Shown here: piece after piece, positions 4,090-45,896 of the stretch
Layout: each line of letters begins with the position of its first letter
How positions within the stretch are numbered: position 1 is the stretch's first letter
DNA from: a virus
Taxonomy: Duplodnaviria; Caudoviricetes
Length of the DNA: 52,692 bases
Virus record (IMG/VR): IMGVR_UViG_3300032329_000320
Coordinates: 1-52,692 of that record
Direction: 5' to 3' (one strand)
The notes under the pieces: generated by a model
The model's database searches: none
What the model was told of the DNA's origin: nothing
What the model saw: only the letters and a program-made list of their open reading frames with translations
Translations under genes and position numbers: made by a program

Positions 4090-4387
4090 TAAGGATAGTT
4101 TAAAAGAGATAATAGAGATTATAGAAAAAGACCATATCATTGGTTCTTATTATCAGCTTCAAAAGAAGCTAATGGAGATTAATAAACTATTAGACGCAAC
4201 TGACTTATCTCAAATAAGCCTAGATAACAAAGACGATGGAACATGGGAGAGAATCATGAAGCTGTTTAGCTCAATAGGTGACATTAACGATGTTCTAAAA
4301 AAACTAAGAATAGATAATGGACTTACAGGAAACAAAGAAGAAGACATTAAAAAAAGCAAATCCATCATCGAAAGATTTGCTCAATAG
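4079..4387 (+). CDS. Helical protein, candidate terminase small subunit
   Basis: Small helical ORF two genes upstream of TerL; start uncertain (4055/4070/4079). Confidence 0.4.
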   Translation: MKSDKDSLKEIIEIIEKDHIIGSYYQLQKKLMEINKLLDATDLSQISLDNKDDGTWERIMKLFSSIGDINDVLKKLRIDNGLTGNKEEDIKKSKSIIERFAQ

Positions 4388-4835: not shown

Positions 4836-6841
4836 TAGAAGAGATATATGGCATAAAATACGAACTACATGAAAAGCCTAAACTAATAGAAATAGGTAAT
4901 AGCGAATTGGATAAAGAGGAACAGTACTTTAGGATAACGAAATTACCCGACTATTTAAGAGATGTGGAGTTTGATGATAATGGTAACGCCATATATAACG
5001 AACAACAAGAGGATTTTATTGTAAAGGAAATCAATAGAATAAATGAAGGTTATTGGTTTTTCAATAATGGAGAGCCTACATATATAACAGGACTTCATTA
5101 TTTCTACTTAAACTATTGGACACTAGAAGATGGAAGTAAGCCTGATTACAGAGAGGTAGATAGGAGATGGTTTTACTATCAAGACCACTGCGAAACATTA
5201 AATCACTGCTTTGGCATTGTCAGAATAAAGAAGCGTAGAGAGGGTGCTACATCACAAGCTACTTGTTATCTTGTATGGAAGTCAATCACTAAGAAGAAGT
5301 CATTCTGTGGTATAGTTTCTAAAACAGGTAAAGATGCGAGTGACGCATTTATCTACATGGTAATGAACGGATATAGGAGCCTTCCTGTTTATCTTAAACC
5401 AAGAGCTGAAGATGAAGACACAAAGACCGAACTTGTGTTTAGGGAAAAGAAAAGCAGAAAGATAAAAGTAAGAGAGAAGGGTCAAATGTTTGATGATGAC
5501 ATTGGTATTGAATCAAAGATAAATTGGAAGAATACTGCACTTAACTCTTATGACTCAGGAAGGGTGACTGCTCTACTAGTAGATGAGGGTGGTAAGTATC
5601 CGGCAGAAGTTCCTATTAATCAGTATTGGCCTATCGTTAAGAAGACCCTTGGGAAGGGTGCGTTTAGAGTAGGCTTCTGTCTAATGCCGTCTACTGCCAA
5701 TGATTCTAAATCTGGTGGTGAACCATATAAGAAACTATTTGACGAATCCAATCACTTTGAAAATGAGTATACGGCTACTGGTCTTTATAGATACTTTTGT
5801 CCTGCTTATGATGGATATGAAGGTTTTATAGATAGATACGGCAAATCAATAATAGAAAATCCTACACCTGAGCAAAAAAAGTACATCAAGGAAAAGCTAG
5901 GCATGAATATAGATTGCGGAGCCAAAGATTTCTTAATGAGACAAAGGTCATTAATATCTGACCCTACATTATTAGCGGAAGAGATAAGAATGAACCCATT
6001 CACAGAAGAAGAAGCGTTCATGATTGACCAAAAGAGATGCTACTTTAATTCTGAGAAAATATATAATCAAATAGAAAGAATAGAACATGATAGAGTTATT
6101 CCGAGAAGAATAAGATTGTATTGGAAGTCAGAAGGAGTTGTGGATTGGTCAGATGACAAAGAAGGTATGTGGTCTGTTTATGAGATACCTGAAAAGGAAC
6201 TTCAGAACAAGAAACTAGATGATAGGAGGATTCCGGCAAATACGCACATATTCTGTAATGGTATTGACCCGTATCGTTCTACGATAATATCAGGGAAGGG
6301 TTCTATGGCAGCGGCTTATATATTTAAGAGACTAGACCCAAATGACCCAGAAAATACAGGAATGGCTGTTGCAGAGTTTTATGGAAGACCAAGGCAAAAA
6401 TCAATGCTTCACGAGGAAATGCTCAAGGCTTGTGTTTTATGGGGAATGAAAGCGAATTATGAGAATGACGTAGGAGATGACTATGTTGACTATTTCAGGG
6501 ATAGAGGATACTCCGAGTATCTATCTAAAACACCTCAAGCAGCTATAGACAGGAATAAGAAGAGGACAGGAAATGTAACATACGGAGTAGCTTCTAGAGA
6601 CCCTTTTGCCTTGGCTAGGCAATTAGAGACATGTATCAACTATATTGAAAGTCATTGTCATAAGATATTCTATAGGGAATTACTAGAGGAATTACTAAAC
6701 TATGACCATGAGAATAGAACGCCTTTCGATAGGACTGTTGCTTTTATGATTTCTTTATTAGCAGGGGTTTCTATAGAAATGAGAAAAGAAGAGATTAAGG
6801 TTCGCAAAGTGCCTATAAAATCTTATAAACTAAACCTTTAA
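4832..6841 (+). CDS. terL: Terminase large subunit
   Basis: YITGLHYFYLN, Walker A-like KKRREGAT, Walker B LLVDEGGK, STAN coupling motif, RNase H GIDPY and FDRTVA. Confidence 0.93.
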   Translation: MIEEIYGIKYELHEKPKLIEIGNSELDKEEQYFRITKLPDYLRDVEFDDNGNAIYNEQQEDFIVKEINRINEGYWFFNNGEPTYITGLHYFYLNYWTLEDGSKPDYREVDRRWFYYQDHCETLNHCFGIVRIKKRREGATSQATCYLVWKSITKKKSFCGIVSKTGKDASDAFIYMVMNGYRSLPVYLKPRAEDEDTKTELVFREKKSRKIKVREKGQMFDDDIGIESKINWKNTALNSYDSGRVTALLVDEGGKYPAEVPINQYWPIVKKTLGKGAFRVGFCLMPSTANDSKSGGEPYKKLFDESNHFENEYTATGLYRYFCPAYDGYEGFIDRYGKSIIENPTPEQKKYIKEKLGMNIDCGAKDFLMRQRSLISDPTLLAEEIRMNPFTEEEAFMIDQKRCYFNSEKIYNQIERIEHDRVIPRRIRLYWKSEGVVDWSDDKEGMWSVYEIPEKELQNKKLDDRRIPANTHIFCNGIDPYRSTIISGKGSMAAAYIFKRLDPNDPENTGMAVAEFYGRPRQKSMLHEEMLKACVLWGMKANYENDVGDDYVDYFRDRGYSEYLSKTPQAAIDRNKKRTGNVTYGVASRDPFALARQLETCINYIESHCHKIFYRELLEELLNYDHENRTPFDRTVAFMISLLAGVSIEMRKEEIKVRKVPIKSYKLNL

Positions 6842-21509: not shown

Positions 21510-24500
21510 ATGGCAGATACCCAGAATGATAATCAACAGCAGCCGCCTAGAGGGGGATTATTGAGAGCTATTTTTGATAAAGGAATACAAGATGGAACTA
21601 TTCAATCAGGACCTATTAGTCCTGCTAGAAAGGTTCAGCCTATATTAACAGGAGTTAGTTCTGAAGCTCAACCTAGACCTATATCTCTACAAGGTGCTGG
21701 AATGGAGAAGCCAAGAAAGGCAATAGTTCAACCAAAGCCACAATTAGTCGGTAAGGTAGAAAATGGAACACCTGTACAACCAATAGCTGTTCCTCAAGTT
21801 AGTGATATACAGTCACTTGCTCCTCAAAAACAATTAACCGAAACTGAGATAGAGCAGAATAGAGCAAAGTATGTGCCTGAAGCTATAGAGAATACAATAA
21901 TCACAGCTAGAAATAGTGCGTCAGATAAGACATATTTTGACAACTTTGTTGCCCCTAATTTAAGAAAAACATTATCTGAAGATATTAAATCAGGAGAGCT
22001 TAATGCAGGATTAAATAAAGATAGATACCCTGTAGTAACAAGACAGATAGATGGTATATTTGAGAATATAGTATTAGGCGTAAAGGATAGGGCTAATACT
22101 TTAATAGGTCTAGATGAGTATGATAGGTTAGATAAGCAAGGTAAAATACAATTCCTTTCAGGTAAAAGCACATTAAGAGTACCCACCATATCTCAAGTTG
22201 GTTCGCCAACAAGAGATTTATATTCAGGTCAAACAACTCAAGAATACCAAGGCGCTGTACCAACAGAAAGAGGAACAGCAGGAGAAATAGCTTATGGTGT
22301 AGGCGGTGTCCTTCCGGACATTGCTACAGGTATCGTGACAGCACCGTTAAATTTGGTAGTTCCTGGAGCTAGCTTATCTTCAGTTGCTGCCATACAAGGT
22401 AGGACAGGAAGAATAAATGCGGCTCAACAAGCATTTCAGGTAGCAAAGACGAATGGATTAAATGATGATGAGGCTTTACAGGTTGCAAAGAATGCAGAGA
22501 AAACAGGAGCTGTAACAGGTGCATTAGAGGGTGCTGCTAGTCAATTCTTTGGTACTAAAATACTTAAAGCATTTGCTGAACCTGCAGCTAAAACAGCATT
22601 AACAGGATTCGTTAATCAAGCTAAACAGTTTCTTAAAGGAGCTATTACTACTACAGGTAAAGTAGCTCTTCCTTTAGCTGCTGATATGGGTGTTGCAGGT
22701 GCTATGGAGATAGTAAGACAAGAAGCTCTTGCAGACCAAAACTTAGAAAATCTAAATAGAGATAAAGAGATTTTAGATAATGTTAAAATGGAAGGTGCTG
22801 TTGGTTTAGCATTTGCTATTGTTGGAAAGCTTAGTAAAGTTCCTAAGTATCTTCAGTCTTATGCAACTAGCGCATTAGCTACATTAGACCCTAATGACTT
22901 AGTGGATTACGCAACAGAAATGGAATTGAGAGGAGAAGCTCCTGCAGGTTTTACGGATACTGTTAGAGAAGAGGTAAAGAAATATAATGATGCAAAGGCT
23001 GCATCAGGAGATGTTGTAGATGCTAATATAGAGCCAACAATCGTTGGTTTAATAATGAAGAAGAAAGGTCTTCAAGAAAAACTTAAACAGGCTGATGATA
23101 CAATTAAGCCTCAGATACAAGCACAAATAGACGAATTAAATACAAGAATTAATACTACACTTGATACAAAAGTACCTCAAGAAGTAGATGATAAAACACA
23201 ATCTAAAATAGAACAAGATGCCACTAAAGAAAGCGAGCAAGTCTCTACCGTACAAGAAGGCGGTACAGCAGAACCTACGGGAGTTATTTCTGGACAACAA
23301 GAAGCCGGGAAAGGAGAAGGGAGCCAACGGCAAGCCACGGAGCAGAGCACAAATATTAGCGATAGCAATATCGGAAGCCAAGCGGAAGTGGTACCTACTC
23401 AAGAAAAAACAAAAAGAGCAGGAGACTCTATTAGAGCATTTAAGATAGAACAAGCTGCAGATACTTTGGATACTAATATATTCGGTATACCTATTGCAAT
23501 ATATAATGGTGTACTAGAAACCGCAGCAACAGCTACTGATTTAGGTGCCGATGTAGTTACTGCTGTTAGAAAGTATTTATCAGAACAGAATCCTGATGAT
23601 ATAGTAGATATAGATGAGAGCGCATTAATAGATGACATAACATCTAAGCTTCCTAAAAAAGAAAAGCCTATCATTACAGAAGATGATGTAGTTAACTATG
23701 AAGCTACTTCTGAACAAAGGAATAATCAAGAAAAGAAAGCATCTAGAACTGTTAATAAAACAGTATGGAGAAAGTTATTAAAGGCTGTTGATGATAATCA
23801 GGTAAATGTAATAAAAGAACTTAGAAAGACTGGTAAGTTTTCAGACTTACTTGTTTCTGCATTAGAAGCTATTAGGCACACTTCAGCAGATTCAAATCAA
23901 AGGATAGATGCATTTAATAAAAATGTATATGATGGACTTAGTGATAAGCCTACAATTCAATTAGGAAACTCTAAGTTTAGCGAGAAAGGATTACTTGAAG
24001 CTGTTATAAAAGCTAAAAGATTGATAGAGATTCAAAGAATGCTAAGTGACAAGTTCAATAGATTTCAACAATATGATACAGAATATAATACAGCATTAGC
24101 TGAATATGAAGCAATAGATGAGGCCACAGCAAAAAATAAAAAGAAACTAGATAAGGTAGCTGAAAAAATAAATGAATTAAATAAAAAGATTGTATCAGCT
24201 AATTTAGATGAAGCTAATCAAGAAGAGTTTGATAAATTAGTTGAACTTGTTAGAGACCAACATGATAAAGCTGATGCTATAATGGCTGAGATGGAATCTA
24301 TATCTGAGCAAAACAAGATAGCTATTGCAAAGATAAGAGAGACTAGAAACAGAAGACAAACAGCACTAGAGTACATAGCAAATAGAGGTGTGCTAACACG
24401 TAATCAAGACGGCACATATTCTTTAGGTAATTACAAAATGGGAGCCATAAGAGAAGGCGTTCCATATACCGCAAATGAAGCTCAAGCATTTTTAAATGTA

Positions 24501-27218
24501 GCTTCTAAATCTGATAAATTTAGCGATATTGACGCTAGGTCAGAAGAGGCTTTCTCTGCATTCAAATCAATATTAGATGAGCAATATGATGCAGGATTAA
24601 TATCTCAAGATGTATATGATGATTTATCTAAATATAAATATGTTCCAATTAAGTATATATCAAGCGTATTGACAGATGGTAATAGCGCATTTATGAAAAG
24701 TAGAGGAGGAGCTGGTATTAAATCACTAACAGGTGGTTCTGATGGTTCTCAAATAACAGATTACTCTACTTTATTCAATATATATGCTACAACAGCTTTA
24801 AAGAATATAGCAACTAATAAAACACTTCAATTATTAGAGAAGGCAATAAAATCAGACCTACCAACAATGGGTGCTACTAATATGTATAATCAAGACATAG
24901 TAGTAAAACTAGCAGAAACTGAAAAGAAAAAAGACGGAACAGATAAGGTAGATAAATTTGGAAACAAAGTATATGTAAAACCTAAAGATGGTTTTAGTAA
25001 TATTAAGGTTTATAATAAAGATGGCATAACAATGCTAACTGCACCTACCTGGTTTACAGATGAATTTCATGGCAACTCTGAATACAATAGAGGGTTGAGT
25101 ATGCTATCATCTGCGCTCGGAGTTAACTTACTAAGAAAAGCTGTTACTATTGCGAATCCAGCATTCGGTATAGCTCAGTTAGTGACACTAGACCCTATTC
25201 AAGCTATTTTAACAGCTAAAGGATTCAATCCTGTTTTACCAATAGCATATGCAGAGATAGTAGCCCAATGGCCTTCAGTTGCAAAGAGTATATTCAATAG
25301 AGATGCTATTTACAAAGAGGCTATTAAGAATGGGGTATTTGGTGATATGGCTGCTAGGTCAGGAATAGATAAGTTTTATGATAATGCGATATTTACAGGT
25401 GTAAAAGATATAGATGATAAAATTGCTGATAAAAATTTATTTGAAAAAGTTTTATTTGGAGCTGATATATCTAGGATACCAGGAATTAAGCAAGCTATAG
25501 ATTTTGGAGAATCAACAGTAGGAGCATCAGAAAAAATGACAAGACTTATAGTTTATAAAAAAGCTAAGAAGTATTTCATGGATAAAGGGTCTTCTGAAGA
25601 GGAAGCCGGGCAACTAGCAGCATATGAAGCTAGAAATACCGCAAACTTTTCTAGAGCAGGTGATATTATAAAACAAGCTAACCATGTAATTCCATATCTG
25701 TCAGCAGCATATGCTACTAAAAGAGCAGTTGTTAAATCAATAAAGAGAGACCCTGCAAAAGCTACTTTCGTAATTTCTCAAATGGCATTAGGCGGTATGG
25801 CTGCTACGCTATGGTCTATTGGTGCTATGTCTGATGATGAAAAAGAAAAAGAGTATTGGGGAGAAATGTACAAGGCTCTTCCTGATTACTATAAGAATAA
25901 CTATGTTGTAATAAGAAATCCTTCTCATAAAATAGGAGATGATATTACAAATGCATTCATTAGAATCCCTTTACCATTTGGAGCAAAAGAAATGTATAGC
26001 GGAGTTATGAGCGCTAGTATGGGAGAGTATATGGATGAGGCAACAACTCCAAGAGAGGCTATCGTATCTTCAATATTATCTACTCTTGATATGGTTGGAT
26101 TAGAAGACGTATCATTACCTCCTGTTGCAAATGCATTAGTTAAGTATAAATTAAATATAGACCCGTATACTGGTAATAAGATAGTTTATGATGAATCTAC
26201 AGGAAAATATAGTTTCCTTGAAGAAAAGAAAGGAACACTACCTATGATTCAGGCTGCAGCACAGAAAACTAAAGCATTCTCTGCTCCTAGATTACAAGCT
26301 GCTATAGAGTCATTTACAGGAAAGTTTGAAAGAAATCCTTTAACTCAAATAACAGTTAACTCATTAAACTCTATGTACGAGTTAGCTGCAGGTAAAGAAA
26401 ACTCTGTATTAAAGTCTATAAAAGATGACCCAAACAAACTCATAGAAAGTCCATTGACTTCCGTATCAGGTAGATTTTTTGCTACACCTACTAAGTACTA
26501 TAAAAATAAGTTTAATACAATCCTTACTGATTATCTATATTCTAAGCTTAATAGTGACTTTAATGGAGCATTAGTAGATTTAGCAGGCAAAAGAATGGAG
26601 AAGATTGGAATATCAGGAATGACATCTAATGAGCAAATGAAATTTTTTGTTAAGGATGCTGAAATATTCCTTAAAGAAGTTGAGAGAGACTTAGGAAAGC
26701 AAGAGGCTTTAAAATATGAGAAGAAACTAAGAGATGCTAGAGTTGGAGAAATAAAAGATGTTCTTAAACTAAAGATAATTGAAGATGATTCTTTAAAGAA
26801 ATTAGCAACAGAGACTAATCCTACTATTAAAGGGAGAGCCGCTTATGAGATATTAAAGAATTCTTCAGATAATCCAAATAAAAAGACCCTTATAGCAACA
26901 GCATTACAAGCTACCGAATTCTTTAGAGACCCTGCAATAGTTGCTTCTTACATGGAAAGTATGCTTGATGATAAATTTGGAGCAGAATATAGAGATAAGT
27001 TTAAGGGTACTTTAAAGGGCAATAGGGCTGATGCTATAGAAAAGATGTATAAATCATCAAAGCAGTTTGGTTCAGACTCAGAAGAGGTAAGAAATGATAA
27101 GCTTGGGATGATAGATGTAATGAAGTTCTATATAGATAGTAAGAACTACGATAGAATGACAAGAAAGGGAGATACTATAACTGAAAGGTTATTTGGGTTC
27201 GACTACCCTCGGAAGTAA
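21510..27218 (+). CDS. Large internal virion protein with LPD38-like C-terminal region
   Basis: 1902 aa; NFSRAG..IPYLSA, LPDYYKNNY..FIRIPLPF, NIDPYTGNKIV motifs; promoter TAGCTTTG at 21477-21484. Confidence 0.7.
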   Translation: MADTQNDNQQQPPRGGLLRAIFDKGIQDGTIQSGPISPARKVQPILTGVSSEAQPRPISLQGAGMEKPRKAIVQPKPQLVGKVENGTPVQPIAVPQVSDIQSLAPQKQLTETEIEQNRAKYVPEAIENTIITARNSASDKTYFDNFVAPNLRKTLSEDIKSGELNAGLNKDRYPVVTRQIDGIFENIVLGVKDRANTLIGLDEYDRLDKQGKIQFLSGKSTLRVPTISQVGSPTRDLYSGQTTQEYQGAVPTERGTAGEIAYGVGGVLPDIATGIVTAPLNLVVPGASLSSVAAIQGRTGRINAAQQAFQVAKTNGLNDDEALQVAKNAEKTGAVTGALEGAASQFFGTKILKAFAEPAAKTALTGFVNQAKQFLKGAITTTGKVALPLAADMGVAGAMEIVRQEALADQNLENLNRDKEILDNVKMEGAVGLAFAIVGKLSKVPKYLQSYATSALATLDPNDLVDYATEMELRGEAPAGFTDTVREEVKKYNDAKAASGDVVDANIEPTIVGLIMKKKGLQEKLKQADDTIKPQIQAQIDELNTRINTTLDTKVPQEVDDKTQSKIEQDATKESEQVSTVQEGGTAEPTGVISGQQEAGKGEGSQRQATEQSTNISDSNIGSQAEVVPTQEKTKRAGDSIRAFKIEQAADTLDTNIFGIPIAIYNGVLETAATATDLGADVVTAVRKYLSEQNPDDIVDIDESALIDDITSKLPKKEKPIITEDDVVNYEATSEQRNNQEKKASRTVNKTVWRKLLKAVDDNQVNVIKELRKTGKFSDLLVSALEAIRHTSADSNQRIDAFNKNVYDGLSDKPTIQLGNSKFSEKGLLEAVIKAKRLIEIQRMLSDKFNRFQQYDTEYNTALAEYEAIDEATAKNKKKLDKVAEKINELNKKIVSANLDEANQEEFDKLVELVRDQHDKADAIMAEMESISEQNKIAIAKIRETRNRRQTALEYIANRGVLTRNQDGTYSLGNYKMGAIREGVPYTANEAQAFLNVASKSDKFSDIDARSEEAFSAFKSILDEQYDAGLISQDVYDDLSKYKYVPIKYISSVLTDGNSAFMKSRGGAGIKSLTGGSDGSQITDYSTLFNIYATTALKNIATNKTLQLLEKAIKSDLPTMGATNMYNQDIVVKLAETEKKKDGTDKVDKFGNKVYVKPKDGFSNIKVYNKDGITMLTAPTWFTDEFHGNSEYNRGLSMLSSALGVNLLRKAVTIANPAFGIAQLVTLDPIQAILTAKGFNPVLPIAYAEIVAQWPSVAKSIFNRDAIYKEAIKNGVFGDMAARSGIDKFYDNAIFTGVKDIDDKIADKNLFEKVLFGADISRIPGIKQAIDFGESTVGASEKMTRLIVYKKAKKYFMDKGSSEEEAGQLAAYEARNTANFSRAGDIIKQANHVIPYLSAAYATKRAVVKSIKRDPAKATFVISQMALGGMAATLWSIGAMSDDEKEKEYWGEMYKALPDYYKNNYVVIRNPSHKIGDDITNAFIRIPLPFGAKEMYSGVMSASMGEYMDEATTPREAIVSSILSTLDMVGLEDVSLPPVANALVKYKLNIDPYTGNKIVYDESTGKYSFLEEKKGTLPMIQAAAQKTKAFSAPRLQAAIESFTGKFERNPLTQITVNSLNSMYELAAGKENSVLKSIKDDPNKLIESPLTSVSGRFFATPTKYYKNKFNTILTDYLYSKLNSDFNGALVDLAGKRMEKIGISGMTSNEQMKFFVKDAEIFLKEVERDLGKQEALKYEKKLRDARVGEIKDVLKLKIIEDDSLKKLATETNPTIKGRAAYEILKNSSDNPNKKTLIATALQATEFFRDPAIVASYMESMLDDKFGAEYRDKFKGTLKGNRADAIEKMYKSSKQFGSDSEEVRNDKLGMIDVMKFYIDSKNYDRMTRKGDTITERLFGFDYPRK
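23218..23448 (+). CDS. Candidate overprinted basic protein in +1 frame
   Basis: MPLKK..QNLREL..KPRSRAQILAIAISEAKRK resembles free-standing small phage basic proteins; A-rich leader. Confidence 0.6.
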   Translation: MPLKKASKSLPYKKAVQQNLRELFLDNKKPGKEKGANGKPRSRAQILAIAISEAKRKWYLLKKKQKEQETLLEHLR

Positions 27219-45148: not shown

Positions 45149-45394
45149 TTATTTATTTTCCAATATTTTTTTAACATCAATAAAGTGTTGAACTCTAAAT
45201 GTCATTCCTTCTTCGGTTAACTCATCTATAATGTTATCAACCATTAGGATACTTGTATCTTTAACAGCTCTATCTGAATGTATTTCAGGAACAAGATGTA
45301 AGTGTGTTGGAACGCACGCCCATATACCTATTCTTACTATCTTGCTAACTTCCATCATAATGTTATTAGCTGTTTGTTCAGGTGTCGATATCAT
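45149..45394 (-). CDS. Hypothetical protein
   Basis: 81-aa ORF overlapping the upstream stop. Confidence 0.6.
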   Translation of the reverse strand: MISTPEQTANNIMMEVSKIVRIGIWACVPTHLHLVPEIHSDRAVKDTSILMVDNIIDELTEEGMTFRVQHFIDVKKILENK

Positions 45395-45896
45395 TTTTTG
45401 AATATTTTAGTTTGATTCTTTTTATTACATCTAAATACAGTTCCTTAAAAGACTCATCTCTAACTACTAGATTATCAAATTGCTCAATGCCGTATCTAAT
45501 AGTTGTATGGTCGTATCTAGGACATTTTAGTGTAGCCATTGTATCTCCGATACTATCTAATGTGTGCCCTAATAATCTAGCCAGCTTGAAATATATAAAC
45601 CTCATATTGACTAATTCTATTTTCCTTGAACGGTTTCTAAGCCTAGCTACATCATGTATAAACAGCCTATCACCATACATTTCTAATAGAATATCATCCA
45701 TGGTATCCCTAAGCGTTAGTAGTGGGATATTTGGTACGTCAGAGTTATCATCCATCATTGTTAAAACATGTGGCTCATAACCAATCTTCTCTTTGAATTC
45801 TAGCTTGAAGGATTCGATAAGTCTAGCTTCTAATTTTCTTTTGTAAATAATAGTATCTGTACTTAATTCCGTGTGTTGTAAATAATCATTCTTCAT
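45378..45896 (-). CDS. Protein with DnaA domain IV-like HTH
   Basis: RSRKIELVNMRFI..TLDSIG..YDHTTIRYGI parallels DnaA R..R..IG..RDHTTV. Confidence 0.7.
   Translation of the reverse strand: MKNDYLQHTELSTDTIIYKRKLEARLIESFKLEFKEKIGYEPHVLTMMDDNSDVPNIPLLTLRDTMDDILLEMYGDRLFIHDVARLRNRSRKIELVNMRFIYFKLARLLGHTLDSIGDTMATLKCPRYDHTTIRYGIEQFDNLVVRDESFKELYLDVIKRIKLKYSKNDIDT

Follow-up and report, generated by a model that had tools for sequence, protein, structure and literature searches.

Relation to described overlapping genes

To our knowledge, long embedded genes on the same strand are very rare in tailed double-stranded DNA phages. The closest likeness to the locus described here is the Rz/Rz1 pair of phage lambda, which passages of PMC5295617 describe as a gene embedded in the +1 frame of another over a mutationally silent flexible linker, with "separated architectures" in other phages; the same passages term the lambda architecture "bizarre" and "unique." Here we report a 76-amino-acid (aa) open reading frame (ORF) lying inside a 1902-aa giant-protein gene (the host gene) of IMG/VR virus record IMGVR_UViG_3300032329_000320, the whole of which (52,692 bases; estimated completeness, 85%) was analyzed and is called the window below. 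It is very probably a functional gene, maintained in its nested position, that encodes a small basic protein. As in Rz/Rz1, a complete gene occupies the +1 frame of a larger phage gene, over a linker, and is found apart from it in other phages. The proteins and functions are unrelated, however, with lysis there and a structural-module giant protein here; the host protein in the present case is 1,900 to 3,900 aa long; and the embedded frame here seems older and widespread, with the host reading being the linker. The locus would thus be a second, unrelated, and widespread embedded example beside Rz/Rz1, with unusually clean evolutionary signatures.

In the classical overprinting of small viruses (reviewed in PMC8227390), a new ORF arises within an old gene, and of the two frames one is ordered and conserved while the other is biased and probably disordered. 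The present locus has the same division between its frames. Unlike in the classical case, it is apparently the nested ORF that is old here and the enclosing reading that is new, which would be a reverse route to overlap, with an old gene engulfed by a growing giant gene. Because the same gene is free-standing in other phages, there is a natural control, and the effect of dual coding on composition and rates can be measured directly.

The host gene resembles the LPD38-type phage polyvalent proteins, in the portions of Iyer et al. (2017, PMC5512222) that describe them, in being giant, multi-module, and placed among late virion genes; unlike the polyvalent proteins of that paper, the window's own 1902-aa protein has neither LPD38 nor another polyvalent domain detected by Pfam. 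The nested gene is not described in the main text of PMC5512222, where the words "overlapping" and "frameshift" occur 0 times. Our search found no published description of the nested gene and no paper naming DUF6496, the Pfam family discussed below; most subscription journals and supplementary files lay outside that search.

The nested ORF and its protein family

The small frame sits one base ahead of the 1902-aa frame on the same strand and is fully enclosed by it (Table 1). A sequence-only reading of the window had placed an overprinted 76-aa ORF at these positions in the +1 frame, likened its product to free-standing MPLKK proteins of the DUF6496 type, and taken the TGG after AKRK for an eroded stop; coordinates, length, and enclosure were confirmed, and the other two claims also stood. 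Searched against 5.8 billion proteins, the nested ORF matched 37 proteins of 48 to 65 aa, the best at E = 7.2e-14 with 72% identity over residues 1 to 57 (75% of the query), and two of the database matches bear a precomputed label for Pfam DUF6496 (PF20106). The PF20106 profile itself matched the nested ORF at E = 7.6e-5 (23.4 bits; profile positions 8 to 50 of 58) and was matched at E ≤ 0.01 by 27 of 38 aligned family members (best, 5.7e-7). All 13 invariant columns of the family alignment (A1) are present in the window ORF: M1, E22, D26, N27, K29, G31, G35, G38, K39, R41, Q45, A48, and I49. By these matches, the nested ORF is a true member of a phage-borne MPLKK...QILAIA family of ~57 aa. 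It is like DUF6496 in family length (~55 to 60 aa) and in the span of the profile match; unlike DUF6496 proper, the window protein scores below the 24-bit cutoff and belongs to a phage-borne branch. On these scores it is filed here as "DUF6496-like, phage branch," not as a certified PF20106 member.

A profile search of 1.84 billion cluster representatives returned 200 at E ≤ 0.001. The 150 representatives among the matches listed are 30 to 214 aa long, and so no giant protein among the matches listed carries the module in frame. A search for in-frame fusions among longer proteins found one 184-aa protein (P0040), in which a 130-residue N-terminal part with an HExxH-type motif (AHESYH) precedes the MPLKK module in the same frame; this single sequence may represent a small metallopeptidase-like domain fused to the module or read-through by a gene caller. 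In a species-genome collection (one genome each of 185,579 species), the family occurs at only 8 loci, all on contigs of metagenome-assembled genomes, and 1 of the 8 is also nested. NCBIfam returned 0 families for four small proteins, and matches to the small protein in the ESM Atlas were to viral hypothetical-protein clusters only. The nested copy is the single family match in the whole window record; one match was likewise found in each of the 5 further nested-type records searched, of which two are 100% complete, and the nested copy is thus the sole copy in 6 of 6 virus records checked.

With respect to the stop, TAG or TAA directly follows ..AKRK in 4 of 4 close IMG/VR relatives, and at 23390, contigs from each of the three other DNA runs spanning this position (X2, X3, and X4) have A. 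The TGG is therefore a private stop loss that adds 19 residues, and because of it the small ORF of the window is 76 aa long instead of ~57 aa. At 23221, a near-identical contig of the X2 run has G, not C, which changes small-protein residue 2 from P to A and the host codon from GCC to GGC; P2 is at least 90% conserved in the family.

Recurrence in divergent giant genes

A scan of IMG/VR gave 304 stretches that encode a relative, of which the best 80, ranked by likeness to the nested query, were kept. These comprise 32 nested loci, 47 free-standing loci, and 1 broken locus (L013, a match without an intact ORF, which was excluded from all statistics). The sequence-only reading had proposed looking for the nest in shifted frames of other giant genes; it is present in these 32 of the best 80 of 304 loci, each time with its own ATG (31 begin MPL and one MPI) and its own stop after 56 to 64 aa. 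The host frame is the small frame minus one in 32 of 32, and the small frame is closed 2 to 20 codons 5' of the ATG in all of them. The enclosing giant ORFs measure 1,097 to 3,864 aa from stop to stop, some being cut by contig ends. For the statistics that follow, identical small-ORF DNA was collapsed, which reduced the nested copies (window included) from 33 to 32 and the free-standing copies from 47 to 40.

The 33 nested small proteins (32 loci plus the window) have a mean identity of 71%. The host proteins of the four close relatives are 65 to 91% identical to that of the window, and the other hosts are barely alignable. BLAST of the window host protein against distant hosts aligned the nest and the ~55 residues before it (residues ~512 to 640), and some distant hosts additionally aligned in the C-terminal region at ~23%. 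The host segments were aligned without L005, whose contig ends there (alignment A2). The conserved helical module stops exactly at the nest and the sequence beyond it is unalignable; therefore, the nest lies at a homologous junction. Recurrence of the same gene, frame, and host junction in dozens of very divergent giant genes shows, at the level of these alignments, that the nest is ancient and maintained.

Selection in the two frames

Among the 32 unique nested copies, nucleotide diversity at small-frame positions 1, 2, and 3 was 0.30, 0.22, and 0.42, respectively, so that the least variable site is the host third position, i.e., the second position of the small frame. Frame-specific rates across relatives had also been proposed as a comparison in the sequence-only reading, and they favor the small frame: the ratio of nonsynonymous to synonymous differences per site (pN/pS) in the small, host, and third frames was 0.36, 1.90, and 0.83, respectively. 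In the 40 unique free-standing copies, the same virtual frames gave 0.31, 1.71, and 1.39, respectively. Within the window and its four close relatives, nucleotide identity was 93.5% in the nest versus 76.7% over the whole gene, and only 2.6% of 1,929 gene windows were as conserved as the nest. Host third-position diversity in these five genomes was 0.021 in the nest versus 0.391 elsewhere in the gene (19-fold lower), and single changes were 19 synonymous and 8 nonsynonymous in the small frame, compared with 3 synonymous and 25 nonsynonymous in the host frame. The aligned copies vary in the manner of a gene whose protein is encoded in the small frame, and they show purifying selection acting on that frame.

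The host frame is open in 33 of 33 nested copies, and its identity is 0.48 in nested copies versus 0.29 for the virtual frame of free copies. Synonymous differences per site in the small frame (pS) were 0.57 in nested versus 0.81 in free copies, at similar protein identities (0.71 and 0.70). Comparison of the nested copies shows a host frame that is kept open and hydrophilic over the nest.

Composition under dual coding and the acidic linker

Raised guanine-plus-cytosine (GC) content and odd codons had been attributed to dual coding in the sequence-only reading, and the host frame had been described as an acidic low-complexity linker; both descriptions extend to the other nested loci. In the window, GC is 0.50 at 23225 to 23374 versus ~0.30 to 0.38 in most of the 1902-aa gene, with a second peak of 0.49 near 22250 to 22400. 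GC of the nested ORF (0.45 to 0.58) is above that of the locus (0.32 to 0.51) in 33 of 33 copies, by 0.07 to 0.24, and free-standing copies are near locus GC (-0.09 to +0.05). Since the rise is present in all nested copies, while free copies follow locus GC, it is an effect of the overlap and not of foreign origin. Third-position T is 0.01 in nested versus 0.29 in free copies, and third-position G is 0.49 versus 0.18; before codons starting with AA, AG, or GA, third-position A is 0.11 versus 0.39 and third-position T is 0.00 versus 0.29.

In the host frame, T at codon position 1 makes up 1.3% in the nest versus 17.4% in the rest of the host genes, and K makes up 3.9% versus 10.2%. The host-frame peptide is rich in E (14.8%), Q (16.2%), and G (16.0%), which together make up 47%, and is depleted in hydrophobic and basic residues (F, L, M, W, Y, and C sum to ~1.4%). 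Across the 33 nested loci, this peptide has a net charge of -1 to -11, versus +10 to +17 for the small protein. Stop avoidance accounts for only a part of the skew, and the remainder looks like selection for a soluble, non-basic linker.

An antisense ORF of 105 aa also spans the nest (Table 1). In 28 of the 32 unique nested copies, one of the antisense frames has no stop across the nest, and a long antisense ORF is expected because T is almost missing at one sense position; we rejected it as a gene.

Start context

Gene starts in these loci are A/T-rich and without Shine-Dalgarno (SD) motifs. The mean A fraction at -20 to -1 is 0.56 at the nested ATG, 0.46 at ordinary gene starts, and 0.36 at 4,354 internal ATGs of host genes, only 3% of which reach 0.56. 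A is at -3 in 76% of 25 unique nested contexts. The minimum free energy (MFE) of the region from -25 to +15 is -0.6 kcal/mol at the nested ATG versus -4.06 for the background, and all 26 unique nested contexts have less structure than the host-gene mean. Bacteroidetes are described in parts of Baez et al. (2019, PMC6847099) as being without SD sequences, with low structure and A at -3 favoring initiation. Given SD-less initiation of this kind and the A-rich, unstructured start context, independent internal initiation, with translation from 23218, is plausible. Contigs of one metatranscriptome (RNA) library cover parts of the region at 90 to 95% identity; these may be DNA carry-over, and from a relative, and were not used as support.

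Alternative explanations

Several points weigh against a maintained, functional nested gene. The PF20106 score of the window ORF is 0.6 bits short of the gathering cutoff of 24 bits. Searches with two family members (tblastn) and with the nest itself (blastn) found the gene in 0 of 50,697 GenBank phage records, where the low-complexity filter may hide K-rich matches, and the family profile was found in 0 of the 4 records nearest by terminase. No fold or sequence similarity to a solved structure supports a function for the small protein: in PDB, Foldseek found 9 matches at E ≤ 10 but none at E ≤ 0.001, and a profile search of PDB sequences gave 0 matches at E ≤ 1. The nested share of the 80 loci is inflated because likeness to a nested query decided which of the 304 were kept, the pairwise statistics are not independent because the loci are related, and pN/pS in one frame of overlapping genes is distorted by constraint on the other. 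The host taxon is drawn solely from terminase identities of 28 to 32% and from SD-less gene starts. The stop loss in the window copy could mean relaxed constraint in this one genome, and the case for translation is a sequence-based one. These last two points would also suit a silent relic, i.e., a small gene swept in by recombination and unexpressed, whose ORF persists through short time or through composition, there being fewer stops in GC-rich stretches. Such a relic is very unlikely in our judgment, as the ATG is kept in 33 copies at 71% mean identity and the stop in 32 loci, in hosts otherwise barely alignable, while variation follows the codon periodicity of the small frame and the nested copy is the only one in each of the six records checked.

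Two open frames in the same orientation, with the nest exactly at the end of the conserved N-terminal module, might instead point to ribosomes that shift +1 near 23218 and terminate at the stop of the small ORF, giving the N-terminal module a DUF6496-like tail and no free small protein. Programmed frameshifts are common in phage structural genes. A +1 shift is less likely here because the small frame is closed shortly before (2 to 20 codons) an invariant ATG in every nested locus; by contrast, the host codon that overlaps this ATG varies among D, N, and Y. Free-standing homologues begin at the same MPL, the A-rich unstructured context fits a start site, and no conserved slippery motif was seen upstream of the nested ATGs (by eye only, with no formal scan); we give frameshifting very little credence. 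That the nest is the most conserved nucleotide stretch of the gene and has an odd composition could also reflect an RNA or DNA signal, such as a regulatory structure, of 170 conserved, GC-rich nucleotides in which the open frames are incidental. We consider this the least probable account, given the three-base periodicity in the small frame (19 synonymous versus 8 nonsynonymous changes), the homology of the protein to free genes of quite different nucleotide composition, and a lack of inverted repeats in 22900 to 23800.

Possible origin and role of the nested gene

If the nested ORF is a maintained gene, the small protein would be translated independently, with ribosomes starting at its own AUG within the giant gene's late mRNA without an SD motif, on an A-rich unstructured stretch, as in Bacteroidota. 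In the giant protein, this DNA would be read as an acidic, disordered linker joining a conserved N-terminal module to variable C-terminal modules. Of the two frames, that of the small gene would be the older and that of the linker the newer, meaning that a free-standing gene would have been engulfed by a growing polyvalent-type gene. In the small-protein tree (62 columns, unrooted), 44 of 47 free copies fall in one clade (Shimodaira-Hasegawa-like approximate likelihood ratio test [SH-aLRT], 96), with 33 nested and 3 free copies on the other side. At least 3 changes between the nested and free states are needed, versus 25.7 for shuffled labels, and 0 of 500 shuffles were as low. A single origin of nesting is not contradicted by the well-supported branches of this tree. 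Capture is the favored, though unrooted, direction of the event.

The three free copies that group with the nested clade (L069 at 6026 to 6205, L008, and L019) could represent a pre-nesting state or an escape; the L069 copy has the long N-terminal form typical of nested copies. A simple fusion of neighbors, in the order N-terminal module, small gene, and C-terminal module, is not supported: a hidden Markov model of the upstream host module had no match in 48 non-nested loci, and there the small gene follows the homologous large ORFs instead of preceding them. Flanking repeats that would suggest a mobile insertion were not found around the nest.

Free-standing copies are located in structural modules. 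Eight of them follow large ORFs at a distance of 0.2 to 2.8 kb; these ORFs are homologous to the part of nested host proteins C-terminal of the nest, and 2 of the 8 contain Pfam LPD38. An SU10_adaptor gene is just downstream of the free copy in L019 (10406 to 11170; E = 7.7e-9) and L031 (10468 to 11235; E = 9.4e-7), and the free copy in these two loci is thus between a large unknown ORF and the head-tail adaptor gene. The large-ORF neighbors of free copies, together with the nested hosts, thus tie the small gene to giant polyvalent-type proteins in both architectures. We know of no function for DUF6496, and a link to giant virion-module (polyvalent-type) proteins would offer the first hint at what DUF6496-like proteins do. 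Nested genes of this kind are never reported by standard gene callers, and a conserved phage protein is therefore missing from the annotation of these genomes.

The AlphaFold2 (AF2) model of the small protein has a helix at residues 12 to 27, a Gly-rich basic loop, and a helix from residue 43 (mean predicted local distance difference test [pLDDT] score, 88). We tentatively suggest, with less than even confidence, that the small protein might be a partner of the giant protein, produced along with it and either nucleic-acid binding or associated with the virion. A more specific idea, which we regard as speculative and rather unlikely, is that the basic small protein and the acidic linker from the same bases may bind each other, with the giant protein carrying or masking a DNA-binding partner so that both are packaged into the capsid and delivered into the host together. 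If the two were such a matched pair, nesting would fix their co-expression, and selection against K and R and for E and Q would be selection for partnership, not merely for a soluble linker. Complex prediction with the host segment (204 aa; A2) and small-protein residues 1 to 57 scored 0.00 against a mark of 0.32, which is no evidence either way.

The phage and its giant host protein

The window encodes a large terminase, a portal protein, capsid-like and virion structural proteins, a tail-fiber-like giant protein, and primase/helicase. Its closest GenBank terminases are those of an uncultured Caudoviricetes record (31.8%) and of Cellulophaga, Flavobacterium, and Maribacter phages, all at 28 to 32% identity. 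By gene content and terminase, the window is an uncultured tailed phage whose nearest cultured relatives infect Flavobacteriia.

No Pfam or PHROG family matched the 1902-aa host protein. Its gene is flanked by virion structural and tail-fiber-like genes, with the terminase, portal, and capsid-like genes upstream, which is the late/virion placement expected of a polyvalent protein. The 1093-aa ORF of L021 that is homologous to its C-terminal part (Table 1) has Pfam LPD38 at E = 3e-26. Kinship with polyvalent proteins and gene position suggest that the 1902-aa protein may be ejected. In a distant nested host, the 3459-aa protein of L016 (6121 to 16497), there is a weak match to ART-PolyVal (ADP-ribosyltransferase) at residues 1663 to 1714 (23.8 bits versus a cutoff of 31.2).

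Table 1. Positions of the nested ORF, its host gene, and associated features in the window
Feature	Position	Strand	Basis
Host gene, 1902-aa giant protein	21510..27218	+	ORF list, translation; structural (late) module
Host helical segment ending at nest, counterpart kept in most distant hosts	23007..23216	+	Alignment A2
Antisense 105-aa ORF over nest	23136..23453	-	ORF list; by-product of skew
A-rich unstructured stretch around nested AUG (-25 to +15), putative SD-independent initiation region	23193..23232	+	A fraction, MFE
TAG stop of small frame, two codons 5' of ATG	23209..23211	+	Sequence
Host-frame reading of nest, acidic E/Q/G-rich linker, host residues ~570 to 628, reads DATKESEQVSTVQEGGTAEPTG...	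23217..23393	+	Translation, composition
Nested ORF, 76 aa, basic DUF6496-like protein, starts MPLKKASKS	23218..23448	+	+1 frame of 21510 to 27218, wholly inside
Family-homologous core, 57 codons, gene length in close relatives	23218..23388	+	L001 to L004 end here
TGG at ancestral stop site	23389..23391	+	TAG or TAA in close relatives; A at 23390 elsewhere
Host residues ~1011 to 1559, homologous to large LPD38-bearing phage proteins	24540..26186	+	BLASTP E = 5.6e-19 to 1093-aa ORF of L021

No transfer RNA genes were found in the window. Elsewhere in the window, a 172-aa ORF at 45378 to 45896 (- strand) and a 132-aa ORF at 45382 to 45780 (+ strand) overlap almost fully on opposite strands and are probably one gene and its shadow.

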